Source of the DNA: Yuukianura sp. NJ FZ-2021
Lineage: Eukaryota
Assembly (NCBI GenBank): GCA_046563655.1
Contig: CM102286.1
Span: forward strand, 9,734,001-9,798,000
DNA: 64,000 nucleotides
Reading direction: 5' to 3'
Every line of letters begins with the position of its first letter. Within the stretch, counting starts at the first letter, position 1. Below the pieces are notes generated by a model. The model had not been told where the DNA came from and ran no database searches. It saw nothing but the letters and a program-made list of their open reading frames with translations. Position numbers and translations under genes: made by a program. Below, piece by piece: positions 39,644 through 61,338 of the stretch.

Positions 39644-41005
39644 GGAGTTCGATTCGAGACGTGAAACTGCTAAGACGTGTGTCACTAAGCTCTCTTTCTT
39701 TTGTCACAAGAAGTTATACCCTTACTAGGATTTAGACTCTTGTTTTTCCATTCGATCCCTAACTTATACAGTCCAGTCTCGCACAATGGAAATTGCGAAT
39801 TTTTGCTTTAGTTCACTAACGTCCTTACTCCAAAGCAACCAGTTTTCAAATTCGGAGCTATTGCACCTGAACCGGTTAAAAGACAAATTTGCGCAACGGC
39901 TCTCGGAAATTGTGACATTACAAAAACCCTGCGACAATCCCACTGTGATCATCCACGGATTACAAATTGAGCGAGTTTCTGTTTCAACCATTTCGGAATG
40001 GATTTTTGGACACTTAAAACTCCAAATTCAAATTCACTCCGTCCGTGTCTTCGGGAAAAAGAGAACAATTTCCGTGTCACTAATGTCAAATGCAGAAAAA
40101 GCAAAGTTATTCAGTCGATGTCATTTGCTTAAGGGATCAGCAATCGGAATCAGCGATGACTTACCACCTCATCAGAGAACGAAAAGTAAGTCCCAGAATG
40201 ACCACTCAGATGCCAAGCACGTGGAGAAAGTAGCAGTTTCATCTACAAATTCTATGTCCACAAGAAGTACTCCACCCGAGGTATTGTTTCACCCAACGGG
40301 AGAGGGAGAGCTCACCTCTCTCGTGGACAAACCGCAGCAGGTTATCCAGTCACAAATCCTCAATGAAAACCTTGACCCCAACCCAGGCGCTCCTTCAAAG
40401 TCTCCAACATCCGAAATTTTACATCAAGACGCCATTCAGCAAAACTCCACATCTCCACAAGAAGCAAGAAAGTCATCGAAGAGGTTTGTCGCTTCCCATG
40501 CAGATTCTCATCTTCCAAACTCTGCTCCCACGAAACATAACACCCTCACCACCAAACATCAGCAAATTCCAGTCACAAACTCAAGTCACAAGCAGCCCGA
40601 CCATCATGCACACAATGGAGGTCATACAGAACTCAACAAATTACATTCCTTCAAAGTAGCAGCAATTCAGGGCCGAGACGCCTTCAAAAAAGCAGTTGCT
40701 GAACATTATGGAGAAGTTAGTCATGAATCATTGGATCATCTCAACAAATCCCTTCTACAAGCGAAACTTGACGAAATGAAAGCAAAATTCAAAGAACGAA
40801 GAAGACGGAAATAAGTTCTATTAAATTTAAATACTTTCAACTTAACTCCTGTAATCAATCATTCCCCCAAATATGTTATCAGTTTGTACAGCCCCACACG
40901 TTAAACATTTGTTATTAGCTACATTTCAAACGAATCGAACTCCCTCTCCATGGGCTTCGGGCCCGCAGGGAGAGTAACATATAAATAAAAAAATAAAAAA
41001 AATAA
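39644..41005 (+). mobile_element. ORF1-only non-autonomous non-LTR retroposon (HAL1-like), copy 1
   Basis: 15-16-bp TSD AAAAGTTTGAATTCT(G), (TAAAAAA)n tail, 3' stem-loop, single ORF. Confidence 0.8.
39786..40814 (+). CDS. LINE ORF1-like protein (342 aa), copy 1
   Basis: VIIHGLQI...RVFGKKRTISVSL...LKGSAIGISDDLPPHQR aligns by eye with the LINE ORF1 in this window (LILHGLQI...RLGR...KPVKVIF...QDLPLQTR). Confidence 0.75.
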   Translation: MEIANFCFSSLTSLLQSNQFSNSELLHLNRLKDKFAQRLSEIVTLQKPCDNPTVIIHGLQIERVSVSTISEWIFGHLKLQIQIHSVRVFGKKRTISVSLMSNAEKAKLFSRCHLLKGSAIGISDDLPPHQRTKSKSQNDHSDAKHVEKVAVSSTNSMSTRSTPPEVLFHPTGEGELTSLVDKPQQVIQSQILNENLDPNPGAPSKSPTSEILHQDAIQQNSTSPQEARKSSKRFVASHADSHLPNSAPTKHNTLTTKHQQIPVTNSSHKQPDHHAHNGGHTELNKLHSFKVAAIQGRDAFKKAVAEHYGEVSHESLDHLNKSLLQAKLDEMKAKFKERRRRK

Positions 41006-44000
41006 AAAAGTTTGAATTCTGAAAGTGGAGAGAGGCGATTCTGCCATCGCTCTAGTATGAGTCGTCCCTGGACGTGGCCAAATTTGCGACATTTCCCAAA
41101 AACATACAAGTGTTAGCAGTCAAATTTTGAAGTTACGGCCTCATGCAAACCGGGTAGAAACTTCGCTCACGGGGGGTTCTAGGGGCCGATGCAAACTTTT
41201 TAAATCATTTAAAAATTATTTCCCGCTTGACGAACTCAGGGGTTTTAGTATTCAAAAGTTTGAATTCTGAAAGTGGAGAGAGGCGATTCTGCCATCGCTC
41301 TAGTATGAGTCCTCCTGGACGTGGCCAAATTTACGACATTTATCAAAAACATACAAGAGTTAGCGGTCAAATTTTGAAGTTACGGCCTCATGCAAACTGG
41401 GTAGAAACTTCGCTCACGGGGGTTCTAGGGGCCGATGCAAACTTTTTAAATCATTTAAAAATTATTTCCCGCTTGTCGAACTCAGGGGTTTTAGTATTCA
41501 AAAGTTTGAATTCTGAAAGTGGAGAGAGGCGATTCTGCCATCGCTCTAGTATGAGTCCTCCCTGGACGTGGCCAAATTTACGACATTTCCCAAAAACATA
41601 CAAGAGTTAGCGGTCAAATTTTGAAGTTACGGCCTCATGCAAACCGGGTAGAAACTTCGCTCACGGGGGGTTCTAGGGGCCGATGCAAACTTTTTAAATC
41701 ATTTAAAAATTATTTCCCGCTTGACGAACTCAGGGGTTTTAGTATTCAAAAGTTTGAATTCTGAAAGTGGAGAGAGGCGATTCTGCCATCGCTCTAGTAT
41801 GAGTCGTCCCTGGACGTGACCAAATTTGCGACATTCCCCTAAAACATACAAGAGTTAGCGGTCAAATTTTGAAGTTACGGCCTCATGCAAACCGGGTAGA
41901 AACTTCGCTCACGGGGGTTCTAGGGGCCGATGCAAACTTTTTAAATCATTTAAAAATTATTTCCCGCTTGACGAACTCAGGGGTTTTAGTATTCAAAAGT
42001 TTGAATTCTGAAAGTGGAGAGAGGCGATTCTGCCATCGCTCTAGTATGAGTCGTCCCTGGACGTGACCAAATTTGCGACATTCCCCTAAAACATACAAGA
42101 GTTAGCGGTCAAATTTTGAAGTTACGGCCTCATGCAAACCGGGTAGAAACTTCGCTCACGGGGGTTCTAGGGGCCGATGCAAACTTTTTAAATCATTTAA
42201 AAATTATTTCCCGCTTGACGAACTCAGGGGTTTTAGTATTCAAAAGTTTGAATTCTGAAAGTGGAGAGAGGCGATTCTGCCATCGCTCTAGTATGAGTCG
42301 TCCCTGGACGTGACCAAATTTGCGACATTTCCCCTAAAACATACAAGAGTTAGCGGTCAAATTTTGAAGTTACGGCCTCATGCAAACCGGGTAGAAACTT
42401 CGCTCACGGGGGTTCTAGGGGCCGATGCAAACTTTTTAAATCATTTAAAAATTATTTCCCGCTTGACGAACTCAGGGGTTTTAGTATTCAAAAGTTTGAA
42501 TTCTGAAAGTGGAGAGAGGCGATTCTGCCATCGCTCTAGTATGAGTCGTCCCTGGACGTGACCAAATTTGCGACATTCCCCTAAAACATACAAGAGTTAG
42601 CGGTCAAATTTTGAAGTTACGGCCTCATGCAAACCGGGTAGAAACTTCGCTCACGGGGGTTCTAGGGGCCGATGCAAACTTTTTAAATCATTTAAAAATT
42701 ATTTCCCGCTTGACGAACTCAGGGGTTTTAGTATTCAAAAGTTTGAATTCTGAAAGTGGAGAGAGGCGATTCTGCCATCGCTCTAGTATGAGTCGTCCCT
42801 GGACGTGACCAAATTTGCGACATTCCCCTAAAACATACAAGAGTTAGCGGTCAAATTTTGAAGTTACGGCCTCATGCAAACCGGGTAGAAACTTCGCTCA
42901 CGGGGGTTCTAGGGGCCGATGCAAACTTTTTAAATCATTTAAAAATTATTTCCCGCTTGACGAACTCAGGGGTTTTAGTATTCAAAAGTTTGAATTCTGA
43001 AAGTGGAGAGAGGCGATTCTGCCATCGCTCTAGTATGAGTCCTCCCTGGACGTGGCGAAATTTACGACATTTCCCAAAAACATACAAGAGTTAGCGGTCA
43101 AATTTTGAAGTTACGGCCTCATGCAAACCGGGTAGAAACTTCGCTCACGGAGGGTTCTAGGGGCCGATGCAAACTTTTTAAATCAGTTAAAAATTATTTC
43201 CCGCTTGACGAACTCAGGGGTTTTAGTATTCAAAAGTTTGAATTCTGAAAGTGGAGAGAGGCGATTCTGCCATCGCTATAGTATGAGTCCTCCCTGGACG
43301 TGGCCAAATTTACGACATTTCCCAAAAACATACAAGAGTTAGCGGTCAAATTTTGAAGTTACGGCCTCATGCAAACCGGGTAGAAACTTCGCTCACGGGG
43401 GGTTCTAGGGGCCGATGCAAACTTTTTAAATCAGTTAAAAATTATTTCCCGCTTGACGAACTCAGGGGTTTTAGTATTCAAAAGTTTGAATTCTGAAAGT
43501 GGAGAGAGGCGATTCTGCCATCGCTCTAGTATGAGTCCTCCCTGGACGTGGCCAAATTTACGACATTTCCCAAAAACATACAAGAGTTAGCGGTCAAATT
43601 TTGAAGTTACGGCCTCATGCAAACCGGGTAGAAACTTCGCTCACGGGGGGTTCTAGGGGCCGATGCAAACTTTTTAAATCATTTAAAAATTATTTCCCGC
43701 TTGACGAACTCAGGGGTTTTAGTATTCAAAAGTTTGAATTCTGAAAGTGGAGAGAGGCGATTCTGCCATCGCTCTAGTATGAGTCGTCCCTGGACGTGAC
43801 CAAATTTGCGACATTCCCCTAAAACATACAAGAGTTAGCGGTCAAATTTTGAAGTTACGGCCTCATGCAAACCGGGTAGAAACTTCGCTCACGGGGGGTT
43901 CTAGGGGCCGATGCAAACTTTTTAAATCATTTAAAAATTATTTCCCGCTTGACGAACTCAGGGGTTTTAGTATTCAAAAGTTTGAATTCTGAAAGTGGAG

Positions 44001-46448
44001 AGAGGCGATTCTGCCATCGCTCTAGTATGAGTCGTCCCTGGACGTGACCAAATTTGCGACATTCCCCTAAAACATACAAGAGTTAGCGGTCAAATTTTGA
44101 AGTTACGGCCTCATGCAAACCGGGTAGAAACTTCGCTCACGGGGGGTTCTAGGGGCCGATGCAAACTTTTTAAATCATTTAAAAATTATTTCCCGCTTGA
44201 CGAACTCAGGGGTTTTAGTATTCAAAAGTTTGAATTCTGAAAGTGGAGAGAGGCGATTCTGCCATCGCTCTAGTATGAGTCCTCCCTGGACGTGGCGAAA
44301 TTTACGACATTTCCCAAAAACATACAAGAGTTAGCGGTCAAATTTTGAAGTTACGGCCTCATGCAAACCGGGTAGAAACTTCGCTCACGGAGGGTTCTAG
44401 GGGCCGATGCAAACTTTTTAAATCATTTAAAAATTATTTCCCGCTTGACGAACTCAGGGGTTTTAGTATTCAAAAGTTTGAATTCTGAAAGTGGAGAGAG
44501 GCGATTCTGCCATCGCTCTAGTATGAGTCCTCCCTGGACGTGGCCAAATTTAAGACATTTCCCAAAAACATACAAGAGTTAGCGGTCAAATTTTGAAGTT
44601 ACGGCCTCATGCAAACCGGGTAGAAACTTCGCTCACGGGGGGTTCTAGGGGCCGATGCAAACTTTTTAAATCAGTTAAAAATTATTTCCCGCTTGACGAA
44701 CTCAGGGGTTTTAGTATTCAAAAGTTTGAATTCTGAAAGTGGAGAGAGGCGATTCTGCCATCGCTCTAGTATGAGTCCTCCCTGGACGTGGCCAAATTTA
44801 CGACATTTCCCAAAAACATACAAGAGTTAGCGGTCAAATTTTGAAGTTACGGCCTCATGCAAACCGGGTAGAAACTTCGCTCACGGGGGGTTCTAGGGGC
44901 CGATGCAAACTTTTTAAATCATTTAAAAATTATTTCCCGCTTGACGAACTCAGGGGTTTTAGTATTCAAAAGTTTGAATTCTGAAAGTGGAGAGAGGCGA
45001 TTCTGCCATCGCTCTAGTATGAGTCCTCCCTGGACGTGGCCAAATTTACGACATTTCCCAAAAACATACAAGAGTTAGCGGTCAAATTTTGAAGTTACGG
45101 CCTCATGCAAACCGGGTAGAAACTTCGCTCACGGGGGGTTCTAGGGGCCGATGCAAACTTTTTAAATCATTTAAAAATTATTTCCCGCTTGACGAACTCA
45201 GGGGTTTTAGTATTCAAAAGTTTGAATTCTGAAAGTGGAGAGAGGCGATTCTGCCATCGCTCTAGTATGAGTCGTCCCTGGACGTGACCAAATTTGCGAC
45301 ATTCCCCTAAAACATACAAGAGTTAGCGGTCAAATTTTGAAGTTACGGCCTCATGCAAACCGGGTAGAAACTTCGCTCACGGGGGGTTCTAGGGGCCGAT
45401 GCAAACTTTTTAAATCATTTAAAAATTATTTCCCGCTTGACGAACTCAGGGGTTTTAGTATTCAAAAGTTTGAATTCTGAAAGTGGAGAGAGGCGATTCT
45501 GCCATCGCTCTAGTATGAGTCGTCCCTGGACGTGACCAAATTTGCGACATTCCCCTAAAACATACAAGAGTTAGCGGTCAAATTTTGAAGTTACGGCCTC
45601 ATGCAAACCGGGTAGAAACTTCGCTCACGGGGGGTTCTAGGGGCCGATGCAAACTTTTTAAATCATTTAAAAATTATTTCCCGCTTGACGAACTCAGGGG
45701 TTTTAGTATTCAAAAGTTTGAATTCTGAAAGTGGAGAGAGGCGATTCTGCCATCGCTCTAGTATGAGTCCTCCCTGGACGTGGCGAAATTTACGACATTT
45801 CCCAAAAACATACAAGAGTTAGCGGTCAAATTTTGAAGTTACGGCCTCATGCAAACCGGGTAGAAACTTCGCTCACGGAGGGTTCTAGGGGCCGATGCAA
45901 ACTTTTTAAATCAGTTAAAAATTATTTCCCGCTTGACGAACTCAGGGGTTTTAGTATTCAAAAGTTTGAATTCTGAAAGTGGAGAGAGGCGATTCTGCCA
46001 TCGCTATAGTATGAGTCCTCCCTGGACGTGGCCAAATTTACGACATTTCCCAAAAACATACAAGAGTTAGCGGTCAAATTTTGAAGTTACGGCCTCATGC
46101 AAACCGGGTAGAAACTTCGCTCACGGGGGGTTCTAGGGGCCGATGCAAACTTTTTAAATCATTTAAAAATTATTTCCCGCTTGTCGAACTCAGGGGTTTT
46201 AGTATTCAAAAGTTTGAATTCTGAAAGTGGAGAGAGGCGATTCTGCCATCGCTCTAGTATGAGTCCTCCCTGGACGTGGCCAAATTTACGACATTTCCCA
46301 AAAACATACAAGAGTTAGCGGTCAAATTTTGAAGTTACGGCCTCATGCAAACCGGGTAGAAACTTCGCTCACGGGGGGTTCTAGGGGCCGATGCAAACTT
46401 TTTAAATCATTTAAAAATTATTTCCCGCTTGACGAACTCAGGGGTTTT

Positions 46449-48160
46449 CCCATCTTACCATTCGTACATATTTTGTGAATATCTAGAATATTTCGTAAAT
46501 AAACTGTGAGGAATATAGCGTGATTCCTTTTGCATTGCCATTTATGCGCTTAAATGGTTCTGATTTTTTGTATGCTGATACCTAAGATATTTAAAAAGTA
46601 GGCAAAATGCGTTTAAACTGTCGTAACTGAAACCTTCGGAAATAATGCGTACATATTCAGCGCTTCTTCTGCACTCATGCATATTGGTGTAAGATTTATG
46701 TGCGGTTTATGTGAGTGATTCTCATTTCTCTTTCTGAGAGCAGTTAGTGGTGAATTATAGGTGCTGAAAAAGTATATAGCAGAAGTTCGTTGTCCGTTAA
46801 GTTTTAATGAAAGTACGGTTTAGTTTTGTCTTCAACTCGTCCGTGATGGGGACCAACTACAACAACTTTTCAGTTGTCTTTTTCAAAGCGGAAAACAGGT
46901 TTTCAGTTGTTCCTTCATCATGGTTAGCGTTTGACGACGACCAAATACGGTGTCACTGGCTATCAAAGCTAACGAAAAACTTAAGGGAACTGGCCACATC
47001 GGCTGAGTCAAAGCCAGAGGACTGGAAAAAGTACGACATTGAATACATCAAATCATTCGGTAAGCGAATTAGTAGTTTAGTGCTTATTAAAATACCAATT
47101 ATGCTAGTAAACAACCTTCCTATAATTTCTAATAAACTTTTGTTAATTTTTTTTCAGTTTCACTTGAAAAAGCGGGGAAAAAATCCAACTCTCTGCGAAC
47201 TTCAAAAGTGCTAGAGATTCCAGATACTTCAGAAAGCGAGGGACAATCCCAAATCCGATTACCAGCACCGACAGTACCACTGCATTACAATTTTGTTGAA
47301 CAACCGCCACATGGAGCTGAAACTGGCCTTCATACCTTTGAGCATAACTTGACGGAGTCAGAAGGTGATTGCCATAAAGCTGTTTTGGCTTATGATAGGA
47401 CAAAATTGTAATTGTGTTGTTGTTTATTTTAGAAGTAGCTCCAGCAGCAGTTAATGAAGCTGCTCCACCAGCAGTTAATGAAGCAGTTCCACTGAGTCTT
47501 ACATTGGTCAATACTGTATCGATTGCTGAACTGCAGCACACGATTCAGCAACTGCAATACAGCATCGAGCAACAGCAATACGAGTTTTGAGGTAAATATT
47601 TATGTCACTACGCTGATCATATTACTGAATTTCGTATTCCTACTTATGACTCTTCTTGTTTACTTTTAGAATTCCAACAAGTTGTCCTTGAGAATCAAGC
47701 TACTTTGAAGCAGGAATTTGCCGACTTACTCAAACTGGTTAGACAAGCATTGTCTAGTAAGGACTATTTAAGGACAAAGTGTATTTGTTTACCCTTTAAG
47801 AAAAAGATGTTTTGTATTCCACTGTGCAATTATTAGCATTTTGTTGATACTATATATTTAATAGCATTGATTAATAAAAATTAACTTGATCAGATACTGA
47901 GTATATGCTATCATTTTAGTGGATATTTCGCGTACAAAAAGTAAATGAATTGTATATACAAGAGCAGCGCTGTTTATATGCAGAAATTTTATGTACCGAT
48001 TCGGTAAGGCATTCTTATGCACGCTCCTTTCTCAGTGCATTTTGTGTACATAAGTTTACGCACCGAAAATGTATATGAAATTTGGGCAAATCCTCACTCG
48101 AGCATAACGCACTTATATTCACTAAGTAAGTACATATTCCGTACGACTTGGTAACATGGG
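46449..48160 (+). mobile_element. Non-autonomous CMC/EnSpm-type DNA transposon (1712 bp)
   Basis: Imperfect TIRs CCCATCTTACCATTCGTAC / GTACGACTTGGTAACATGGG; 2-bp TSD TT in the satellite unit; no transposase. Confidence 0.8.
46807..47860 (+). pseudogene. Intron-containing accessory gene remnant of the EnSpm-like element
   Basis: FSVVFF...FSVVPSSW...CHW...W motif of the kind seen in animal EnSpm accessory ORFs. GT/AG sites near 47060/47157, 47365/47432 and 47592/47669; in-frame TGA near 47588. Confidence 0.5.
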
Positions 48161-49673
48161 TTAGTATTCAAAAGTTTGAATTCTGAAAGTGGAGAGAGGC
48201 GATTCTGCCATCGCTCTAGTATGAGTCGTCCCTGGACGTGACCAAATTTGCGACATTCCCTAAAACATACAAGAGTTTGCGGTCAAATTTTGAAGTTACG
48301 GCCTCATGCAAACCGGGTAGAAACTTCGCTCACGGGGGGTTCTAGGGGCCGATGCAAACTTTTTAAATCATTTAAAAATTATTTCCCGCTTGACGAACTC
48401 AGGGGTTTTAGTATTCAAAAGTTTGAATTCTGAAAGTGGAGAGAGGCGATTCTGCCATCGCTCTAGTATGAGTCCTCCCTGGACGTGGCCAAATTTACGA
48501 CATTTCCCAAAAACATACAAGAGTTAGCGGTCAAATTTTGAAGTTACGGCCTCATGCAAACCGGGTAGAAACTTCGCTCACGGGGGGTTCTAGGGGCCGA
48601 TGCAAACTTTTTAAATCATTTAAAAATTATTTCCCGCTTGACGAACTCAGGGGTTTTAGTATTCAAAAGTTTGAATTCTGAAAGTGGAGAGAGGCGATTC
48701 TGCCATCGCTCTAGTATGAGTCGTCCCTGGACGTGACCAAATTTGCGACATTCCCCTAAAACATACAAGAGTTAGCGGTCAAATTTTGAAGTTACGGCCT
48801 CATGCAAACCGGGTAGAAACTTCGCTCACGGGGGGTTCTAGGGGCCGATGCAAACTTTTTAAATCATTTAAAAATTATTTCCCGCTTGACGAACTCAGGG
48901 GTTTTAGTATTCAAAAGTTTGAATTCTGAAAGTGGAGAGAGGCGATTCTGCCATCGCTATAGTATGAGTCCTCCTGGACGTGGCCAAATTTACACGACAT
49001 TTCCCAAAAACATACAAGAGTTAGCGGTCAAATTTTGAAGTTACGGCCTCATGCAAACCGGGTAGAAACTTCGCTCACGGGGGGTTCTAGGGGCCGATGC
49101 AAACTTTTTAAATCATTTAAAAATTATTTCCCGCTTGACGAACTCAGGGGTTTTAGTATTCAAAAGTTTGAATTCTGAAAGTGGAGAGAGGCGATTCTGC
49201 CATCGCTCTAGTATGAGTCGTCCCTGGACGTGACCAAATTTGCGACATTCCCCTAAAACATACAAGAGTTAGCGGTCAAATTTTGAAGTTACGGCCTCAT
49301 GCAAACCGGGTAGAAACTTCGCTCACGGGGGGTTCTAGGGGCCGATGCAAACTTTTTAAATCATTTAAAAATTATTTCCCGCTTGACGAACTCAGGGGTT
49401 TTAGTATTCAAAAGTTTGAATTCTGAAAGTGGAGAGAGGCGATTCTGCCATCGCTATAGTATGAGTCCTCCCTGGACGTGGCCAAATTTACGACATTTCC
49501 CAAAAACATACAAGAGTTAGCGGTCAAATTTTGAAGTTACGGCCTCATGCAAACCGGGTAGAAACTTCGCTCACGGGGGGTTCTAGGGGCCGATGCAAAC
49601 TTTATAAATCATTTAAAAATTATTTCCCGCTTGACGAACTCAGGGGTTTTAGTATTCAAAAGTTTGAATTCTG

Positions 49674-51032
49674 GGAGTTCGATTCGAGACGTGAAACTGC
49701 TAAGACGTGTGTCACTAAGCTCTCTTTCTTTTGTCACAAGAAGTTATACCCTTACTAGGATTTAGACTCTTGTTTTTCCATTCGATCCCTAACTTATACA
49801 GTCCAGTCTCGCACAATGGAAATTGCGAATTTTTGCTTTAGTTCACTAACGTCCTTACTCCAAAGCAACCAGTTTTCAAATTCGGAGCTATTGCACCTGA
49901 ACCGGTTAAAAGACAAATTTGCGCAACGGCTCTCGGAAATTGTGACATTACAAAAACCCTGCGACAATCCCACTGTGATCATCCACGGATTACAAATTGA
50001 GCGAGTTTCTGTTTCAACCATTTCGGAATGGATTTTTGGACACTTAAAACTCCAAATTCAAATTCACTCCGTCCGTGTCTTCGGGAAAAAGAGAACAATT
50101 TCCGTGTCACTAATGTCAAATGCAGAAAAAGCAAAGTTATTCAGTCGATGTCATTTGCTTAAGGGATCAGCAATCGGAATCAGCGATGACTTACCACCTC
50201 ATCAGAGAACGAAAAGTAAGTCCCAGAATGACCACTCAGATGCCAAGCACGTGGAGAAAGTAGCAGTTTCATCTACAAATTCTATGTCCACAAGAAGTAC
50301 TCCACCCGAGGTATTGTTTCACCCAACGGGAGAGGGAGAGCTCACCTCTCTCGTGGACAAACCGCAGCAGGTTATCCAGTCACAAATCCTCAATGAAAAC
50401 CTTGACCCCAACCCAGGCGCTCCTTCAAAGTCTCCAACATCCGAAATTTTACATCAAGACGCCATTCAGCAAAACTCCACATCTCCACAAGAAGCAAGAA
50501 AGTCATCGAAGAGGTTTGTCGCTTCCCATGCAGATTCTCATCTTCCAAACTCTGCTCCCACGAAACATAACACCCTCACCACCAAACATCAGCAAATTCC
50601 AGTCACAAACTCAAGTCACAAGCAGCCCGACCATCATGCACACAATGGAGGTCATACAGAACTCAACAAATTACATTCCTTCAAAGTAGCAGCAATTCAG
50701 GGCCGAGACGCCTTCAAAAAAGCAGTTGCTGAACATTATGGAGAAGTTAGTCATGAATCATTGGATCATCTCAACAAATCCCTTCTACAAGCGAAACTTG
50801 ACGAAATGAAAGCAAAATTCAAAGAACGAAGAAGACGGAAATAAGTTCTATTAAATTTAAATACTTTCAACTTAACTCCTGTAATCAATCATTCCCCCAA
50901 ATATGTTATCAGTTTGTACAGCCCCACACGTTAAACATTTGTTATTAGCTACATTTCAAACGAATCGAACTCCCTCTCCATGGGCTTCGGGCCCGCAGGG
51001 AGAGTAACATATAAATAAAATAAAAAAATAAA
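49674..51032 (+). mobile_element. ORF1-only retroposon, copy 2 (ORF 49816-50844)
   Basis: Identical 342-aa ORF, same TSD and same position in the satellite unit as copy 1. Confidence 0.8.
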
Positions 51033-53522
51033 AAAAGTTTGAATTCTGAAAGTGGAGAGAGGCGATTCTGCCATCGCTCTAGTATGAGTCGTCCCTGGAC
51101 GTGGCCAAATTTGCGACATTTCCCAAAAACATACAAGTGTTAGCAGTCAAATTTTGAAGTTACGGCCTCATGCAAACCGGGTAGAAACTTCGCTCACGGG
51201 GGGTTCTAGGGGCCGATGCAAACTTTTTAAATCATTTAAAAATTATTTCCCGCTTGACGAACTCAGGGGTTTTAGTATTCAAAAGTTTGAATTCTGAAAG
51301 TGGAGAGAGGCGATTCTGCCATCGCTCTAGTATGAGTCCTCCTGGACGTGGCCAAATTTACGACATTTATCAAAAACATACAAGAGTTAGCGGTCAAATT
51401 TTGAAGTTACGGCCTCATGCAAACCGGGTAGAAACTTCGCTCACGGGGGTTCTAGGGGCCGATGCAAACTTTTTAAATCATTTAAAAATTATTTCCCGCT
51501 TGTCGAACTCAGGGGTTTTAGTATTCAAAAGTTTGAATTCTGAAAGTGGAGAGAGGCGATTCTGCCATCGCTCTAGTATGAGTCCTCCTGGACGTGGCCA
51601 AATTTACGACATTTCCCAAAAACATACAAGAGTTAGCGGTCAAATTTTGAAGTTACGGCCTCATGCAAACCGGGTAGAAACTTCGCTCACGGGGGGTTCT
51701 AGGGGCCGATGCAAACTTTTTAAATCATTTAAAAATTATTTCCCGCTTGACGAACTCAGGGGTTTTAGTATTCAAAAGTTTGAATTCTGAAAGTGGAGAG
51801 AGGCGATTCTGCCATCGCTCTAGTATGAGTCGTCCCTGGACGTGACCAAATTTGCGACATTCCCCTAAAACATACAAGAGTTAGCGGTCAAATTTTGAAG
51901 TTACGGCCTCATGCAAACCGGGTAGAAACTTCGCTCACGGGGGTTCTAGGGGCCGATGCAAACTTTTTAAATCATTTAAAAATTATTTCCCGCTTGACGA
52001 ACTCAGGGGTTTTAGTATTCAAAAGTTTGAATTCTGAAAGTGGAGAGAGGCGATTCTGCCATCGCTCTAGTATGAGTCGTCCCTGGACGTGACCAAATTT
52101 GCGACATTCCCCTAAAACATACAAGAGTTAGCGGTCAAATTTTGAAGTTACGGCCTCATGCAAACCGGGTAGAAACTTCGCTCACGGGGGTTCTAGGGGC
52201 CGATGCAAACTTTTTAAATCATTTAAAAATTATTTCCCGCTTGACGAACTCAGGGGTTTTAGTATTCAAAAGTTTGAATTCTGAAAGTGGAGAGAGGCGA
52301 TTCTGCCATCGCTCTAGTATGAGTCCTCCTGGACGTGGCCAAATTTACGACATTTCCCAAAAACATACAAGAGTTAGCGGTCAAATTTTGAAGTTACGGC
52401 CTCATGCAAACCGGGTAGAAACTTCGCTCACGGGGGGTTCTAGGGGCCGATGCAAACTTTTTAAATCATTTAAAAATTATTTCCCGCTTGACGAACTCAG
52501 GGGTTTTAGTATTCAAAAGTTTGAATTCTGAAAGTGGAGAGAGGCGATTCTGCCATCGCTCTAGTATGAGTCGTCCCTGGACGTGACCAAATTTGCGACA
52601 TTCCCCTAAAACATACAAGAGTTAGCGGTCAAATTTTGAAGTTACGGCCTCATGCAAACCGGGTAGAAACTTCGCTCACGGGGGTTCTAGGGGCCGATGC
52701 AAACTTTTTAAATCATTTAAAAATTATTTCCCGCTTGACGAACTCAGGGGTTTTAGTATTCAAAAGTTTGAATTCTGAAAGTGGAGAGAGGCGATTCTGC
52801 CATCGCTATAGTATGAGTCCTCCCTGGACGTGGCCAAATTTACACGACATTTCCCAAAAACATACAAGAGTTAGCGGTCAAATTTTGAAGTTACGGCCTC
52901 ATGCAAACCGGGTAGAAACTTCGCTCACGGGGGGTTCTAGGGGCCGATGCAAACTTTTTAAATCATTTAAAAATTATTTCCCGCTTGACGAACTCAGGGG
53001 TTTTAGTATTCAAAAGTTTGAATTCTGAAAGTGGAGAGAGGCGATTCTGCCATCGCTCTAGTATGAGTCGTCCCTGGACGTGACCAAATTTGCGACATTC
53101 CCTAAAACATACAAGAGTTAGCGGTCAAATTTTGAAGTTACGGCCTCATGCAAACCGGGTAGAAACTTCGCTCACGGGGGGTTCTAGGGGCCGATGCAAA
53201 CTTTTTAAATCATTTAAAAATTATTTCCCGCTTGACGAACTCAGGGGTTTTAGTATTCAAAAGTTTGAATTCTGAAAGTGGAGAGAGGCGATTCTGCCAT
53301 CGCTATAGTATGAGTCCTCCCTGGACGTGGCCAAATTTACGACATTTCCCAAAAACATACAAGAGTTAGCGGTCAAATTTTGAAGTTACGGCCTCATGCA
53401 AACCGGGTAGAAACTTCGCTCACGGGGGGTTCTAGGGGCCGATGCAAACTTTATAAATCATTTAAAAATTATTTCCCGCTTGACGAACTCAGGGGTTTTA
53501 GTATTCAAAAGTTTGAATTCTG

Positions 53523-54885
53523 GGAGTTCGATTCGAGACGTGAAACTGCTAAGACGTGTGTCACTAAGCTCTCTTTCTTTTGTCACAAGAAGTTATACCC
53601 TTACTAGGATTTAGACTCTTGTTTTTCCATTCGATCCCTAACTTATACAGTCCAGTCTCGCACAATGGAAATTGCGAATTTTTGCTTTAGTTCACTAACG
53701 TCCTTACTCCAAAGCAACCAGTTTTCAAATTCGGAGCTATTGCACCTGAACCGGTTAAAAGACAAATTTGCGCAACGGCTCTCGGAAATTGTGACATTAC
53801 AAAAACCCTGCGACAATCCCACTGTGATCATCCACGGATTACAAATTGAGCGAGTTTCTGTTTCAACCATTTCGGAATGGATTTTTGGACACTTAAAACT
53901 CCAAATTCAAATTCACTCCGTCCGTGTCTTCGGGAAAAAGAGAACAATTTCCGTGTCACTAATGTCAAATGCAGAAAAAGCAAAGTTATTCAGTCGATGT
54001 CATTTGCTTAAGGGATCAGCAATCGGAATCAGCGATGACTTACCACCTCATCAGAGAACGAAAAGTAAGTCCCAGAATGACCACTCAGATGCCAAGCACG
54101 TGGAGAAAGTAGCAGTTTCATCTACAAATTCTATGTCCACAAGAAGTACTCCACCCGAGGTATTGTTTCACCCAACGGGAGAGGGAGAGCTCACCTCTCT
54201 CGTGGACAAACCGCAGCAGGTTATCCAGTCACAAATCCTCAATGAAAACCTTGACCCCAACCCAGGCGCTCCTTCAAAGTCTCCAACATCCGAAATTTTA
54301 CATCAAGACGCCATTCAGCAAAACTCCACATCTCCACAAGAAGCAAGAAAGTCATCGAAGAGGTTTGTCGCTTCCCATGCAGATTCTCATCTTCCAAACT
54401 CTGCTCCCACGAAACATAACACCCTCACCACCAAACATCAGCAAATTCCAGTCACAAACTCAAGTCACAAGCAGCCCGACCATCATGCACACAATGGAGG
54501 TCATACAGAACTCAACAAATTACATTCCTTCAAAGTAGCAGCAATTCAGGGCCGAGACGCCTTCAAAAAAGCAGTTGCTGAACATTATGGAGAAGTTAGT
54601 CATGAATCATTGGATCATCTCAACAAATCCCTTCTACAAGCGAAACTTGACGAAATGAAAGCAAAATTCAAAGAACGAAGAAGACGGAAATAAGTTCTAT
54701 TAAATTTAAATACTTTCAACTTAACTCCTGTAATCAATCATTCCCCCAAATATGTTATCAGTTTGTACAGCCCCACACGTTAAACATTTGTTATTAGCTA
54801 CATTTCAAACGAATCGAACTCCCTCTCCATGGGCTTCGGGCCCGCAGGGAGAGTAACATATAAATAAAAAAATAAAAAAAATAAA
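53523..54885 (+). mobile_element. ORF1-only retroposon, copy 3 (ORF 53665-54693)
   Basis: Identical 342-aa ORF, same TSD and same position as copy 1. Confidence 0.8.
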
Positions 54886-57134
54886 AAAAGTTTGAATTCT
54901 GAAAGTGGAGAGAGGCGATTCTGCCATCGCTCTAGTATGAGTCGTCCCTGGACGTGGCCAAATTTGCGACATTTCCCAAAAACATACAAGTGTTAGCAGT
55001 CAAATTTTGAAGTTACGGCCTCATGCAAACCGGGTAGAAACTTCGCTCACGGGGGGTTCTAGGGGCCGATGCAAACTTTTTAAATCATTTAAAAATTATT
55101 TCCCGCTTGACGAACTCAGGGGTTTTAGTATTCAAAAGTTTGAATTCTGAAAGTGGAGAGAGGCGATTCTGCCATCGCTCTAGTATGAGTCCTCCCTGGA
55201 CGTGGCCAAATTTACGACATTTATCAAAAACATACAAGAGTTAGCGGTCAAATTTTGAAGTTACGGCCTCATGCAAACCGGGTAGAAACTTCGCTCACGG
55301 GGGGTTCTAGGGGCCGATGCAAACTTTTTAAATCATTTAAAAATTATTTCCCGCTTGTCGAACTCAGGGGTTTTAGTATTCAAAAGTTTGAATTCTGAAA
55401 GTGGAGAGAGGCGATTCTGCCATCGCTCTAGTATGAGTCCTCCCTGGACGTGGCCAAATTTACGACATTTCCCAAAAACATACAAGAGTTAGCGGTCAAA
55501 TTTTGAAGTTACGGCCTCATGCAAACCGGGTAGAAACTTCGCTCACGGGGGGTTCTAGGGGCCGATGCAAACTTTTTAAATCATTTAAAAATTATTTCCC
55601 GCTTGACGAACTCAGGGGTTTTAGTATTCAAAAGTTTGAATTCTGAAAGTGGAGAGAGGCGATTCTGCCATCGCTCTAGTATGAGTCGTCCCTGGACGTG
55701 ACCAAATTTGCGACATTCCCTAAAACATACAAGAGTTAGCGGTCAAATTTTGAAGTTACGGCCTCATGCAAACCGGGTAGAAACTTCGCTCACGGGGGTT
55801 CTAGGGGCCGATGCAAACTTTTTAAATCGTTTAAAAATTATTTCCCGCTTGACGAACTCAGGGGTTTTAGTATTCAAAAGTTTGAATTCTGAAAGTGGAG
55901 AGAGGCGATTCTGCCATCGCTCTAGTATGAGTCGTCCCTGGACGTGACCAAATTTGCGACATTCCCCTAAAACATACAAGAGTTAGCGGTCAAATTTTGA
56001 AGTTACGGCCTCATGCAAACCGGGTAGAAACTTCGCTCACGGGGGGTTCTAGGGCCGATGCAAACTTTTTAAATCATTTAAAAATTATTTCCCGCTTGAC
56101 GAACTCAGGGGTTTTAGTATTCAAAAGTTTGAATTCTGAAAGTGGAGAGAGGCGATTCTGCCATCGCTCTAGTATGAGTCGTCCCTGGACGTGGCCAAAT
56201 TTACGACATTTCCCTAAAACATACAAGAGTTAGCGGTCAAATTTTGAAGTTACGGCCTCATGCAAACCGGGTAGAAACTTCGCTCACGGGGGGTTCTAGG
56301 GCCGATGCAAACTTTTTAAATCATTTAAAAATTATTTCCCGCTTGACGAACTCAGGGGTTTTAGTATTCAAAAGTTTGAATTCTGAAAGTGGAGAGAGGC
56401 GATTCTGCCATCGCTCTAGTATGAGTCCTCCCTGGACGTGGCCAAATTTACGACATTTCCCAAAAACATACAAGAGTTAGCGGTCAAATTTTGAAGTTAC
56501 GGCCTCATGCAAACCGGGTAGAAACTTCGCTCACGGGGGGTTCTAGGGGCCGATGCAAACTTTTTAAATCATTTAAAAATTATTTCCCGCTTGACGAACT
56601 CAGGGGTTTTAGTATTCAAAAGTTTGAATTCTGAAAGTGGAGAGAGGCGATTCTGCCATCGCTCTAGTATGAGTCCTCCCTTGACGTGGCCAAATTTACG
56701 ACATTTCCCAAAAACATACAAGAGTTAGCGGTCAAATTTTGAAGTTACGGCCTCATGCAAACCGGGTAGTGTAGCGGCCTCGCACCGCTACTCTGCTAAA
56801 ATATGGCCGCAGCCACGCCCTCAGACTCCAAATCACTGATCAGCAGATCCACACAACTCCCAAAAGACCAGAAAACTCACCAACACTGGAAACCACATCA
56901 GCGGTTAACTATATAATATATATTTAATACGCTGAAATAATAATATAAACAAATAAAACAACTAATCACTCATAATATACAACTGATCTCCCTCCTCCTC
57001 CGATCACACCAAAAACCAGACTGCCACTAAACTATATACAAAATCCTCTGCTCGCTCGCTCCTCGCCTCAACTCAAATCTACCGCGAGCCACATCATCAT
57101 CTCAACCTGCCCCTAACCTAACACTCCACTAAAC

Positions 57135-58478
57135 CTATGGAAGAGCAGGCGTCTCACGTTCCCCCTTCCGATGGATGGCGTTCCAGTCGAACCACGGGCG
57201 ACATCCAACTGCGAAACCCCTAGGCGACTGCTCCTCCAGAATCTCGGCAACTCCGTCACCGTCATCATCATCATCATCATCATGGACATCAGCGGAGTCT
57301 TCATCATGGTAATCGTCAACCGCAGCATCGGATTCCTCCCTGATGGTCCAGCACGTCACACTTTTCACTTTCACTAATTTCTTCAAAATAAGTTCTTGTG
57401 GCAACCAATCATAAGCACTTGGTTTCAGCCACATTTCGAACATGATTGGAGCCCATAAATGGACTCCACTGCAATTGCATTTCCACAAACATTCGACTCC
57501 ACTTTTCGTCACTTTCCGGGACAGTGAGACCCTCAACCGTCGAAATTGTAGAAAATGAGCAATACTTTTAATTAAACACATAACTTCACTGAATTTTACA
57601 TTTCTGCACTGCAACCAATTCTGAGTTTCTCCTTCCATCACTTTACGGGACAGTGAGACCCTGAACGACTCAGAACTTGGCGCAGACTGAACTTCACAAA
57701 TCAACAATCTTTTTTCCAATAATTTCACATAATCACACTGACACTCACTTTTTAAATTGTCATTTCTCGAATTTTTAGGGAATACGACCCTTTTTGCACA
57801 GAATAGCACCGCAGCACTATTAACTTCACATTTTGAAGCTAGAGGAACGCCGCACTTCAGCATCGTGGCCGGGCTAACGTTCTCTGGAGCGATGTCGGAA
57901 GATTGAGGCCTCGTTCCCGCACATCTCTCTTTTTGAAGGATCCCGCAGTCTCCTCCATTTCCATTTTTCATAAAATTTTTCACAACACTTTTCACTTCAC
58001 ATTTCACTTCCTTGATCCTCGGAATTTGGAGACACAGTACCGCCAGTGCACTTAGCCGAATACTGCCTCCGGGAGAGTCCTGGTCGCAACCATAATCTTC
58101 ATCATCTGACGTCACCGGAGTCCACGAAAACGCGTCCGCTTCCATGTACTGCCAGCCAGCCAGAGGCACTCTCCATATCTTAATTTCCGGATTCATCAAT
58201 TCTCTTTTCCTCATCACTACCACCACATTCCACCAACACAATATGTACAATGGATTGGAGCCGCTAAAACGCGACTCCTGAGGCACTAACACTAATTTCA
58301 ACTGTACAGACACTTGCACCTTCTTAATAATGAGTGCGTGACAACACTCAACATGAAAAATAAACACAAAATTTAACTTATAACTTGAAGCACTGACAAG
58401 TTCACTATGTTCGTCCAAAAATTGAATTATGATTTGGGAAATGATGGACGAAACGTCATTCCCCACTTTTAGTTTAAA
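57135..58478 (-). CDS. Degenerate pol-derived ORF in the -1 frame relative to gag
   Basis: About 447 open codons after a T TTA AAC slippery site. Only vestigial resemblance to protease (FLDEHS), RNase H end (EADAFSWTPV) and integrase; no YxDD motif. Confidence 0.55.
   Translation of the reverse strand, partial: FKLKVGNDVSSIISQIIIQFLDEHSELVSASSYKLNFVFIFHVECCHALIIKKVQVSVQLKLVLVPQESRFSGSNPLYILCWWNVVVVMRKRELMNPEIKIWRVPLAGWQYMEADAFSWTPVTSDDEDYGCDQDSPGGSIRLSALAVLCLQIPRIKEVKCEVKSVVKNFMKNGNGGDCGILQKERCAGTRPQSSDIAPENVSPATMLKCGVPLASKCEVNSAAVLFCAKRVVFPKNSRNDNLKSECQCDYVKLLEKRLLICEVQSAPSSESFRVSLSRKVMEGETQNWLQCRNVKFSEVMCLIKSIAHFLQFRRLRVSLSRKVTKSGVECLWKCNCSGVHLWAPIMFEMWLKPSAYDWLPQELILKKLVKVKSVTCWTIREESDAAVDDYHDEDSADVHDDDDDDDGDGVAEILEEQSPRGFAVGCRPWFDWNAIHRKGERETPALP
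58436..58478 (-). promoter_or_regulatory. -1 programmed ribosomal frameshift signal
   Basis: Heptamer UUUAAAC in the gag frame just before UAA, 7-nt spacer, 9-bp stem GGGGAAUGA/UCAUUUCCC. Confidence 0.8.
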
Positions 58479-59719
58479 TATTCTGAATCGTCTTCTTCCT
58501 CTCCATATTCTCCATAATCCTCCACGACTTCCTCTGAAATGTCCAATTGAAAAGATCCAAGAGCGAAATCCACTGGCGTAGGACACTGAAACTGCTTGTG
58601 ACCACGCCCACTACATCTCCAGCAATAAATTTCATCCATATTTCGCCACTGCTCACTTCTGGAGCCATTAAAATGACTCCTGTTCTCATCTGGAGGCGCA
58701 TCCACTTCACTCTGAACTCCACTAGCACTAATTTCCAAGTCATCTCCTTGACCTTCGTCATCAAATGTCACTTCGGCTTCAATTTCACAATGATTGGAGC
58801 CAATATCATTGACTCCTTCCCCGCAGGGTACTTGTTCATCGTCAGTCTCCTCCTTTTCACTATCACTGTTTTCGTTTTTACAACCACTTTTTTCTTCCTC
58901 AGTATCACTTTCACTATTTACATCCGAATTTACCTTCACAATTGGAGGTAACTGATTTTTCAATTTGTACAGATCATCTTCTGCACATAAATTGGCATGA
59001 GCAACTCTGCATGCCACAAATAATTCATCAACTGTAGAATAACTGGTTGTTCCTAAGGCTGTACGAAGCCTAGGATAAAGAGCCAGCCTTGCCCGTAGCA
59101 CGGAATCAGCCTCTGACTCATTTGGGTGCACTAACTTGGCACTACGAACCATTTCGTAAATAAATTCTTCCACTGGTTCGTGTAGTTTCTGTATTCTGGT
59201 GTGCAGTAGTCTGGTCCTCTCAGCAACATCAATCCAATTATCATAACGATTGATGAACTGCACTTTGAATTCACTCCACAGTGTCACTGTACCAAGCACA
59301 TGATCCAACCACGGTTGTGATTCACTTGGTAAAACTGTTTTAATTAAGTAAAGAAACTGCCCTGTCGAATGACCTTGTGCAGTAAAGTACCGTTCCACTT
59401 CCACTAAATATCCAGCAGCACTCATTTTCCTCGTATCAAACTTTGGAACTGGTAATTTTGAATTCAGAGATGTGAATTTCACATTTTGCAGGGCCGTAAT
59501 CAGCGCCCTCGTTTGCTCACTTGGTGTGATTGGAGCCCCCGCAGCGACTCCGACGGAACTTGATGCAACTATTTTTTCCTCCATGCCTCGCAAGGCTTTA
59601 GCTACCGCAGCAGCCACAATTTTATCAACTTCTTCTTTGGTGTATGTAGACATGACCGGATCACTCACTTTTGCCGGCACTGCACTACTTGGAGTGGGAG
59701 ATGCACTGGGGGTAGACAT
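58469..59719 (-). CDS. gag: Gag (capsid-like region plus CCHC zinc knuckle), 416 aa
   Basis: Retrotransposon Gag features (PKFD...W.EFK.QFI.RY...Q...EPVEEFI) and CWRCSGRGHKQFQC. Confidence 0.88.
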   Translation of the reverse strand: MSTPSASPTPSSAVPAKVSDPVMSTYTKEEVDKIVAAAVAKALRGMEEKIVASSSVGVAAGAPITPSEQTRALITALQNVKFTSLNSKLPVPKFDTRKMSAAGYLVEVERYFTAQGHSTGQFLYLIKTVLPSESQPWLDHVLGTVTLWSEFKVQFINRYDNWIDVAERTRLLHTRIQKLHEPVEEFIYEMVRSAKLVHPNESEADSVLRARLALYPRLRTALGTTSYSTVDELFVACRVAHANLCAEDDLYKLKNQLPPIVKVNSDVNSESDTEEEKSGCKNENSDSEKEETDDEQVPCGEGVNDIGSNHCEIEAEVTFDDEGQGDDLEISASGVQSEVDAPPDENRSHFNGSRSEQWRNMDEIYCWRCSGRGHKQFQCPTPVDFALGSFQLDISEEVVEDYGEYGEEEDDSEYLN

Positions 59720-61338
59720 TTACCCCGCAAAAAATTTTCCTCCGCGTCGGCAACTAGATCCTCTTCTAGTACCGATAATTATACTAAATGTACAATGGTT
59801 AACTTTACACTGCACTCTGTATCTCCATTTTGGTCATATGCGACCTTTGACACGGATTGGAGCCCACGAGTGGACTCCTAAATGACTATGAGAGCCGTCG
59901 CAACGACTCTGATCACTTCACTATGAACAACCGCAGTTATCCTTATATTTTCACTAATTTTACCAAATTTTCGGGTCAAATCACACTTGACCTGGATGAC
60001 CTCCCTGGCCTTTGGTAGTTGAGACACGAACGGTCGCCACTGTGTAGCGGCCTCGCACCGCTACTCTGCTAAAATATGGCCGCAGCCACGCCCTCAGACT
60101 CCAAATCACTGATCAGCAGATCCACACAACTCCCAAAAGACCAGAAAACTCACCAACACTGGAAACCACATCAGCGGTTAAATATATAATATATATTTAA
60201 TACGCTGAAATAATAATATAAACAATAAAACAACTAATCACTCATAATATACAACTGATCTCCCACCTCCTCTCGTAACACCCAAAACCAGACTACCCCT
60301 CAACTATATACAAAATCCTCTGCTCGCTCGCTCCTCGCCTCCACTCAAATCTACCGCGAGCCACATCATCATCTCAACCTGCCCCTATCCTAGCACTACC
60401 CTAACGCTATGGACGAGCAGGCGTCTCAGTAGAAACTTCGCTCACGGGGGGTTCTAGGGGCCGATGCAAACTTTTTAAATCATTTAAAAATTATTTCCCG
60501 CTTGACGAACTCAGGGGTTTTAGTATTCAAAAGTTTGAATTCTGAAAGTGGAGAGAGGCGATTCTGCCATCGCTCTAGTATGAGTCCTCCTGGACGTGGC
60601 CAAATTTACGACATTTCCCAAAAACATACAAGAGTTAGCGGTCAAATTTTGAAGTTACGGCCTCATGCAAACCGGGTAGAAACTTCGCTCACGGGGGGTT
60701 CTAGGGGCCGATGCAAACTTTTTAAATCATTTAAAAATTATTTCCCGCTTGACGAACTCAGGGGTTTTAGTATTCAAAAGTTTGAATTCTGAAAGTGGAG
60801 AGAGGCGATTCTGCCATCGCTCTAGTATGAGTCCTCCTGGACGTGGCCAAATTTACGACATTTCCCAAAAACATACAAGAGTTAGCGGTCAAATTTTGAA
60901 GTTACGGCCTCATGCAAACCGGGTAGAAACTTCGCTCACGGGGGGTTCTAGGGGCCGATGCAAACTTTTTAAATCGTTTAAAAATTATTTCCCGCTTGAC
61001 GAACTCAGGGGTTTTAGTATTCAAAAGTTTGAATTCTGAAAGTGGAGAGAGGCGATTCTGCCATCGCTCTAGTATGAGTCGTCCCTGGACGTGGCCAAAT
61101 TTACGACATTTCCCAAAAACATACAAGAGTTAGCGGTCAAATTTTGAAGTTACGACCTCATGCAAACCGGGTAGAAACTTCGCTCACGGGGGGTTCTAGG
61201 GGCCGATGCAAACTTTTTAAATCATTTAAAAATTATTTCCCGCTTGACGAACTCAGGGGTTTTAGTATTCAAAAGTTTGAATTCTGAAAGTGGAGAGAGG
61301 CGATTCTGCCATCGCTCTAGTATGAGTCGTCCCTGGAC

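Follow-up and report, generated by a model that had tools for sequence, protein, structure and literature searches.

A high-copy LTR element of Yuukianura sp. without recognisable pol enzymes keeps an inherited frameshift signal and a long open frame behind it

Introduction

Non-autonomous long terminal repeat (LTR) retrotransposons include BARE-2 of barley, which keeps gag, and two coding-free classes, the large retrotransposon derivatives (LARD) and the terminal-repeat retrotransposons in miniature (TRIM). Here we describe a 3.66 kb minus-strand LTR element (positions 56770-60428) in a 64,000-nt stretch of Yuukianura sp. NJ FZ-2021 DNA (GenBank assembly GCA_046563655.1, contig CM102286.1, positions 9,734,001 to 9,798,000), the whole of which is called the window below. 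Like BARE-2, LARD and TRIM, the element keeps its LTRs, a putative primer-binding site (PBS) and a polypurine tract (PPT), is without reverse transcriptase (RT) or integrase (IN), would require mobilisation in trans and has reached a high copy number. Unlike LARD and TRIM, which have no open reading frames (ORFs), it carries an intact gag and a second frame of 447 codons, ORF2, which lies in the -1 register behind gag.

Recoding signals of retroelements are usually explained by the need for a fixed ratio of Gag to Gag-Pol. Coronavirus-type signals combine the heptamer U UUA AAC with an H-type pseudoknot to bring about -1 frameshifting, and the element resembles them in its heptamer, in a stem 1 of 10 bp set off by a 6-nt spacer and in an 8-bp loop pairing 17 nt downstream. 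It differs in that the zero-frame stop adjoins the heptamer and that the predicted product of the shift holds no recognisable enzyme. Among gag-keeping parasites we know of none described with a working-looking frameshift cassette leading into a long, domain-less open frame, and a limited full-text literature search found no non-autonomous LTR element with a frameshift into such a frame.

The closest system that we found is a Ty3/gypsy (Metaviridae) element on the metagenome contig L001. The two have a homologous gag, the heptamer with its adjoining stop, a hairpin, a pseudoknot candidate, a -1 frame entered at that place and a PBS-like stretch starting TGGCGA. They differ in what follows: the pol of L001 is 1219 aa long and includes protease, RT, RNase H and IN, and a third ORF is present there, whereas the window element has a 447-aa frame without domains. 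The explanation that we favour, to which we give as a whole a probability of about 0.55, is that the element is a derivative of such an autonomous element that inherited the signal, and that its -1 frame has been kept open by selection for something other than a catalytic product.

Results

The frameshift signal and its counterpart in L001

The gag of the element ends GAA TAT TTA AAC TAA. The preliminary description had pointed to this ending and to a U UUA AAC heptamer, which indeed lies across the last two sense codons in the zero-frame register, directly next to the stop (Table 1). TTTAAAC occurs only once inside the element. The one gag homologue detected in a near-length search, P0001 (35% identity, E = 1.4e-52), is encoded on L001, a contig of 7677 nt. 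A weak search among longer proteins found no gag relatives, and none were found in viral contigs or in prokaryote genome contigs. Gypsy gag-pol proteins that contain PF03732 also resemble the element gag in their gag portions, at E values of 1.5e-9 to 1e-3. Membership in Ty3/gypsy would thus be a matter of gag homology only, the element having no RT by which to place it. Pfam gives weak zf-CCHC matches to the zinc knuckle of gag (E = 0.086-0.15, under the cut-off), and the CCHC motif lines up with the knuckle of P0001.

The L001 gag ends GAT CAT TTA AAC TAA, with the same heptamer and stop as in the window element. Its -1 frame encodes the 1219-aa pol, in which an aspartic protease, RVT_1, RNase H, an integrase zinc domain and an integrase core are recognised with E values between 5.7e-10 and 6.9e-35. 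To judge from this domain content L001 is an autonomous Ty3/gypsy-type element. Because the same heptamer and stop there open the way into a full pol in the -1 frame, the signal of the window element is inherited, and the earlier claim of a preserved recoding signal holds for heptamer, stop and stem alike. Directly past the slip site L001 has a hairpin (z = -2.85, with 4 of 200 shuffles as good) whose inner stem, compared by eye, keeps a GAUGA/UCAUC core and shows a two-sided change relative to the window. The loop of this hairpin can pair with a downstream GGGGU at -9.8 kcal/mol. When the downstream stretch is shuffled, 67 of 5000 sequences do as well, but when the loop is shuffled instead, 396 of 5000 do.

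The third ORF of L001 (6061-7566, plus strand; 501 aa) follows pol and encodes a 3'-5' exonuclease (PF01612, E = 4.2e-26) with a CCHC-like knuckle towards its C-terminal side. A further 111 nt of contig follow this ORF, with no 3' LTR among them, so that the ORF is a possible part of the element. To our knowledge, an exonuclease gene of this kind would be unusual in an LTR retrotransposon.

In the window element the stem past the heptamer contains an outer U-A pair and one G.U pair. It folds at -12.1 kcal/mol (z = -2.5), which 3 of 200 shuffles equal. The preliminary description gave this stem as 9 bp behind a 7-nt spacer, which is correct if the outer U-A pair is left out; with that pair it has 10 bp and the spacer 6 nt. 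Eight bases of its loop could pair with UGGACGAA at -11.5 kcal/mol. A pairing this stable arises in 21 of 5000 cases when the downstream stretch is shuffled and in 23 of 5000 when the loop is, and the two predicted stems together probably form the layout of an H-type pseudoknot. Two diverged sister contigs, described below, match the window up to the cassette, as far as 58435 and 58440, and then diverge from it. Read by eye, 6 letters of the stem 2 partner survive in one and 7 in the other, in a similar place, and the stretch between the two stems differs from that in the window. These contigs suggest relatives or recombinants that share the end of gag and stem 1 and have a different sequence downstream.

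An in-frame heptamer in the overlap of two ORFs, followed at 5-9 nt by a structure, is the canonical layout of a -1 frameshift signal, and it is the layout read here. The weight of the heptamer lies in its position and frame, together with the identical heptamer and stop at the end of the L001 gag.

An open frame far beyond chance

ORF2 takes up the whole internal region that remains after gag. Its frame is open from 58610, crosses the PPT and enters the 3' LTR, whose first position is 57156. It had been described as open for about 447 codons into the 3' LTR, and this is what we find: there is no in-frame stop before a TAG that lies with the final 22 nt of the frame inside the LTR. Stop triplets are by no means rare in the stretch. 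There are 73 (48 TGA, 15 TAA and 10 TAG), all of them off-frame; the other two forward frames hold 33 and 40, and ORF2 has 0 against 29 expected (P(0) about 1e-13). The longest open frame across 2000 shuffles was 162 codons. The openness of ORF2 is thus far beyond chance.

Besides being open, ORF2 retains a weak protein-like imprint. Compared with a null that forbids stops only, which accounts for codon positions 1 and 3, codon position 2 is rich in A (z = +3.2) and poor in G (z = -3.0), as it is in gag. Amino-acid composition departs from a nucleotide-only null (chi2 = 61.7, p = 2e-6), with D, E and K up and R, G and T down, a shift in the same direction as in gag. The codon usage of ORF2 correlates with that of gag at r = 0.71 in frame, compared with 0.24 and 0.65 off frame.

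The region also carries a repeated word. The 10-mer GGCTCCAATC occurs five times in the window, each time within the element, where 0.10 would be expected, and none of 100 shuffles reached five. Its copies are dispersed over the 5' untranslated region (UTR), gag and ORF2 and stand in differing codon phases, and L001 has none. This suggests a signal at the nucleotide level, perhaps for packaging or a bound factor, which could be why the ORF2 region stays. ORF2 holds in addition a repeat of about 29-35 nt (57509-57537 and 57638-57666, minus strand), whose copies are 93% identical and lie 129 nt apart with unrelated sequence between them.

Domain content and origin of ORF2

ORF2 matches no Pfam family at E <= 1, and so has no RT match. 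A phmmer search against 1.84 billion (1.84e9) representative proteins gave no match at E <= 0.001, Atlas gave no usable match, with a recognition of 1297 that lies in the range of shuffled sequences, and no relatives were found in viral contigs or in the six frames of the window or of L001. The sole match in PDB, SalC (E = 0.025), was taken as chance. AlphaFold, run without an alignment, predicted no confident fold (predicted local distance difference test, pLDDT, 38; predicted template-modelling score, pTM, 0.25). The proposal that ORF2 lacks RT and any other catalytic domain is therefore upheld by Pfam, phmmer, hhalign and a pol profile; and the protease, RT, RNase H and integrase domains that an autonomous element would own were not detected in the element by Pfam, the pol profile or hhalign.

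For the comparison with pol, 1029 proteins related to the L001 pol at E <= 1e-20 were found among 8000 scored, 120 of them among the matches listed. Fourteen of these pols, with rows of at least 91% coverage, were aligned. The element was also searched by tblastn with 124 queries (P0001-P0121 and three translations from L001), and 68 rows had E <= 1. Three matches lay in the region and frame of ORF2 (P0008, E = 8.2e-5; P0018, 2.6e-4; P0099, 0.25), all on aa 98-184 and all corresponding to the C-terminus of the pol RNase H and its linker to integrase. This patch matches P0008 by BLASTP at E = 4e-5 (28/100 identities) and the L001 pol at E = 0.029. The pol profile finds one patch of 55 residues, with profile positions 576-628 on ORF2 107-161, equalled by 13 of 2000 shuffles, and the best Smith-Waterman score over 121 pols, 77, was reached by 1 of 244 shuffles.

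The preliminary description had seen eroded echoes of protease, RNase H and integrase in ORF2. The echo of the RNase H end (EADAFSW) is probably real homology in the ancestral -1 frame, at a borderline empirical p of about 0.005-0.01. For the protease echo (FLDEHS), Pfam, the pol profile, hhalign and pairwise comparison gave nothing significant, nor was anything significant found for integrase, where the best match had E = 1.0. These two echoes, statistically indistinguishable from noise, were set aside as unsupported, though not disproved. The check by an HHpred-type search and structure prediction that had been proposed thus returned one weak patch from hhalign and no fold. A resemblance of ORF2 to the exonuclease ORF of L001 was rejected (best E = 0.33).

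Judged on this patch, ORF2 is quite likely in part a remnant of pol. About 360 of its 447 residues are without a demonstrated pol origin, which leaves room for the alternative that aa 1-97 and 185-447 were captured from the host or from another element and fused in frame. These parts have no significant similarity to the 121 gypsy pols, the pol profile or the third ORF of L001, and the 29-35-nt repeat and the copies of GGCTCCAATC suggest that the region was remodelled. No donor was found among the 1.84e9 proteins, in PDB or in the window, and these parts stand in one uninterrupted frame with both the pol-derived patch and the ancestral frameshift. We consider a mostly foreign ORF2 quite improbable.

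Another alternative is that the frameshift product is a functional Gag-X protein, in which X would be a fast-evolving accessory domain carried in particles that competes for the enzymes of the helper or counters host defence. It would account for the preserved frame, for the composition that ORF2 shares with gag and for the codon usage that is closest to gag in frame. The composition is partly due to TG-rich DNA, the low pLDDT and an Atlas recognition no better than that of shuffled sequences speak against a folded domain, and ORF2 has no homologues although relatives of gag and pol are in the databases. We regard a functional Gag-X protein as unlikely.

Sister contigs

Five sequencing runs from two studies hold 18-45% of the sampled words of the element, none of them on record as RNA. 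Contigs of four of the runs were aligned to it at a likeness of at least 80%, which gave 355, 404, 126 and 43 aligned pieces, with identities from at least 99% to below 90%. The pieces of three runs cover every one of the 30 bins of the element and those of the fourth cover 27 of the 30; all of ORF2 is included. The element thus belongs to a high-copy family, the ORF2 region included; read depth was not taken as a measure of copy number. The indels considered here come from 12 rows out of 55 and the substitutions from 40 out of 628, with neighbouring rows grouped by hand into events.

Among the listed long pieces within ORF2, 11 of 13 are gapless at about 6-10% divergence and the remaining pair differ in net length by -9 and +6, though the longest pieces may favour gapless alignments. 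The frame is preserved in 6 of the 8 indel events in ORF2 that could be scored: -3, a second -3 that is the sum of three 1-nt losses shared by the same contigs and at most 5 nt apart, 0 (+1/-1), -9, +6 and -48. The remaining two events are -1 deletions. A count of at least 6 in 8 has a P of 0.004 under a null of 0.25 and of 0.02 under a null of one third. Listed events outside ORF2 comprise three in the 5' UTR and LTR, all of +/-1, and one of +21 in gag.

Twenty-eight of the 40 substitution rows fall within the two ORFs. The 21 in ORF2 are spread 7/7/7 over the codon positions; 4 are synonymous, 17 non-synonymous and none makes a stop, where neutrality would give 21-28% synonymous changes and 4-5% stops. 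In gag, 4 of 7 are synonymous. At seven of the ORF2 rows every X1 and X2 contig differs from the window, so that these changes are private to the window copy and uninformative. The remaining 14, polymorphic among the contigs, are all non-synonymous, compared with 4 of 6 synonymous at the polymorphic gag rows (p = 0.003, after a post hoc split). Within this selected sample the substitutions are as expected if gag is constrained and the amino acids of ORF2 are not. A run of 14 non-synonymous changes in 14 at rows polymorphic in X1 or X2 has P = 0.02-0.03 under neutrality, again post hoc, and could mean diversifying selection, as the Gag-X alternative would have it.

A further alternative is that ORF2 is a neutral relic, the leftover of an internal deletion, which is open since the family expanded recently from one master copy and which is now decaying without selection. 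The neutral look of the ORF2 substitutions (7/7/7; 4/21 synonymous), the missing fold and homologues, the 1-nt deletions in some sister contigs and the identity of the last 139 nt of the LTRs, which would suit a young copy, are all as this explanation predicts. A recent piece of pol would have left protease and integrase recognisable, however, and neither is recognised. Drift deep enough to hide them without bringing a single one of the 73 stop triplets into frame is very unlikely, since 5% of random substitutions make stops, and sister contigs that have diverged by 6-10% are mostly gapless or changed by multiples of three. We therefore hold the neutral relic to be rather unlikely, though a better candidate than either of the preceding alternatives.

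Structure and surroundings of the element

The structural marks of an LTR retrotransposon are present, namely paired direct LTRs with TG...CA ends and a target-site duplication. The LTRs are 95.1% identical over 388 columns. Their 19 differences (18 substitutions and one indel) all fall within the first 248 LTR positions, with two main clusters near positions 15-41 and 128-164, and the final 139 nt are identical. Differences clustered in this way do not behave like a clock, and conversion or a hypervariable U3 may lie behind them. Dating of the insertion by LTR divergence was dropped on account of this clustering.

The element sits inside one unit of a host satellite (unit 247/248 nt, copies 97-99% alike), whose arrays occupy 38134-56769 and 60429-61338 of the window. 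As the satellite unit reads ...TTTCTACCCGG..., the 4 bp CTAC at both ends of the element are a duplication, which restores the unit. The putative PBS starts with TGG, and the window contains no tRNA genes. No further copy of the element was found within the window, nor any pol or gag of the same clade elsewhere in it at E <= 1e-3.

Three identical ORFs of 361 codons without a Pfam family (39729-40814, 49759-50844 and 53608-54693) break up the satellite arrays. Elsewhere, the window contains a non-LTR retrotransposon in two overlapping frames (24228-27102, minus strand; endonuclease PF03372, E = 2.5e-11; reverse transcriptase PF00078, E = 6.2e-31) and an exon-like ORF (33729-34481, minus strand) that encodes the end of a BIR domain and a RING finger, like those of inhibitor of apoptosis proteins (PF00653, E = 1.3e-8; PF13920, E = 2e-11). 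These two neighbours mark the surroundings as animal DNA. A tandem repeat at 29551-29975, with 18 copies of a 24-nt unit that contains the palindrome GTTTAAAC, is the source of many of the TTTAAAC matches in the window.

Table 1. Features of the element, in positions of the window.
Feature	Position	Strand	Description
5' LTR	60043..60428	-	386 nt, TG...CA; direct repeat with 56770-57156
Target-site duplication CTAC	60429..60432 (5' side) and 56766-56769	-	read from sequence
Putative primer-binding site	60025..60039	-	TGG-starting stretch, 3 nt past the 5' LTR; read from sequence
gag	58469..59719	-	intact; 416 codons (59719-58472) and TAA stop (58471-58469); from the ORF list
CCHC zinc knuckle of gag	58580..58627	-	C-X2-C-X4-H-X4-C; motif seen in the translated sequence
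Slippery heptamer U UUA AAC	58472..58478	-	X XXY YYZ register, last two sense codons of gag; gag stop directly next
Stimulator stem 1	58435..58465	-	10 bp (58465-58456 with 58444-58435), 11-nt loop, 6-nt spacer from the heptamer
Candidate pseudoknot stem 2 partner UGGACGAA	58410..58417	-	17 nt downstream of stem 1; would pair with loop bases 58452-58445
ORF2	57135..58478	-	-1 frame; 447 codons from the slip site and TAG (57137-57135), through the PPT into the 3' LTR
ORF2 aa 98-184	57927..58187	-	probable remnant of RNase H C-terminus and RNase H-integrase linker; similarity to pol
10-mer GGCTCCAATC	57444-57453, 58253-58262, 58792-58801, 59528-59537, 59855-59864	-	five dispersed copies; 5' UTR, gag, ORF2
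Polypurine tract GGAAGGGGGAA	57159..57169	-	2 nt ahead of the 3' LTR, inside ORF2; read from sequence
3' LTR	56770..57156	-	387 nt, TG...CA

Discussion

The element is very probably a non-autonomous, RT-less gypsy derivative that inherited its frameshift signal. Its ancestor would have been a Ty3/gypsy-type element that expressed pol by -1 frameshifting at a U UUA AAC on the last two sense codons of gag. The derivative appears to have kept the parts that act in cis, namely the LTRs, the PBS, the PPT, gag with its CCHC knuckle and the frameshift cassette of heptamer, stop, spacer, stem and probable H-type pseudoknot. Protease, RT, RNase H and integrase would be supplied in trans by an autonomous relative located outside the window, of which the element would be a successful high-copy parasite. 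A minority of ribosomes is expected to slip at the heptamer and to make a Gag-X fusion of about 860 residues. ORF2 itself would be the old pol frame after a large in-frame loss, with aa 98-184 alone still recognisable and the remainder drifted or replaced beyond recognition, with no predicted fold.

The preliminary description suggested selection for a Gag-X fusion or for translation itself, with packaging in cis, avoidance of nonsense-mediated decay or a decoy for the helper element as possible reasons. An ORF2 that is unrecognisable and nevertheless stop-free, in a family whose indels mostly preserve the frame, argues for selection on the frame itself, and such selection makes sense only if ribosomes enter the frame, that is, if the cassette works. 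The listed substitutions look unconstrained. On balance we think that the frame has probably been kept open by selection. The replicating lineage would have kept it free of stops and frameshifts with its amino acids nearly unconstrained, and with such a frame the trait most likely to be selected is that ribosomes can travel on to the 3' end, or that the fusion is harmless and untruncated, rather than a catalytic product.

Several observations pull the other way. TTTAAAC is common in the window, with 53 occurrences against 31 expected on both strands, and nested folds of 84 nt and 91 nt around the site are no better than shuffles (z = -0.34 and -1.34), in a method unable to score pseudoknots. 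The pol patch in ORF2 is seen by hhalign at E = 0.02 with a probability of 2.4%, the match of P0018 to it falls to E = 0.46 by BLASTP, and with the whole window as database the similarity to pol falls short of E <= 1e-3. The LTRs are 4.9% apart with clustered differences, so that the copy may be young, which weakens arguments from this one copy. Among its sisters, two minority forms have 1-nt deletions in ORF2 (57475 and 57937), which tempers the outcome of the proposed check on family copies, and in one X3 contig the ORF2 side is preceded by unlike sequence upstream, with the switch falling precisely on the heptamer (58472). Frame conservation rests on the 12 of 55 indel rows, with six joints in ORF2 dropped for unclear inserts, and over all listed rows the contrast between gag and ORF2 in synonymous and non-synonymous changes is non-significant (p = 0.14).

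As to why a frame should be kept open in this way, our preferred reason is that ribosomes shifted at the heptamer would clear the 1.3 kb past the gag stop, which would protect the genomic RNA against surveillance of the nonsense-mediated decay (NMD) type. A study of recoding and NMD (PMC6277124) describes how readthrough and frameshift elements stabilise NMD-sensitive RNAs because ribosomes displace UPF1, with 1.5% recoding or readthrough being enough for protection, and how stops in the downstream stretch would abolish it. An RT-less element with 1.3 kb behind its gag stop fits that logic. Its likeness to the RNAs treated there (Moloney murine leukaemia virus (MoMLV) readthrough, turnip crinkle virus (TCV) and pea enation mosaic virus 2 (PEMV-2); PMC6277124) consists in the long stretch that lies behind a stop, a recoding structure at that stop and a stop-free frame downstream, along which ribosomes can run on. 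It would be unlike them in that the downstream frame of the viruses encodes an essential polymerase, whereas in the window element protection would be the sole remaining role. That ribosome transit or escape from NMD is the reason for the open frame is a tentative proposal, possible and no better than that. Its strictest form, in which ORF2 is a 'sequence-free' frame whose 447 codons are without stops only so that slipped ribosomes reach the 3' LTR, strip off surveillance factors and protect the RNA, is more doubtful still.

Should the frame prove to be a young relic, the element would be no more than a common kind of deletion derivative. What makes it worth attention is that the family is successful and high in copy number and, with the enzymes lost, still has the signal and a long open frame. 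If this frame is indeed selected while its amino acids are free, the element would be a natural experiment that separates the protein-making role of frameshifting from its ribosome-moving roles, in RNA stability, in the evasion of surveillance and in the remodelling of RNA for packaging. It would also be a warning to annotators that 'open' need not mean a functional protein, and in this family the signal and the frame would have outlived every enzyme that they once served.

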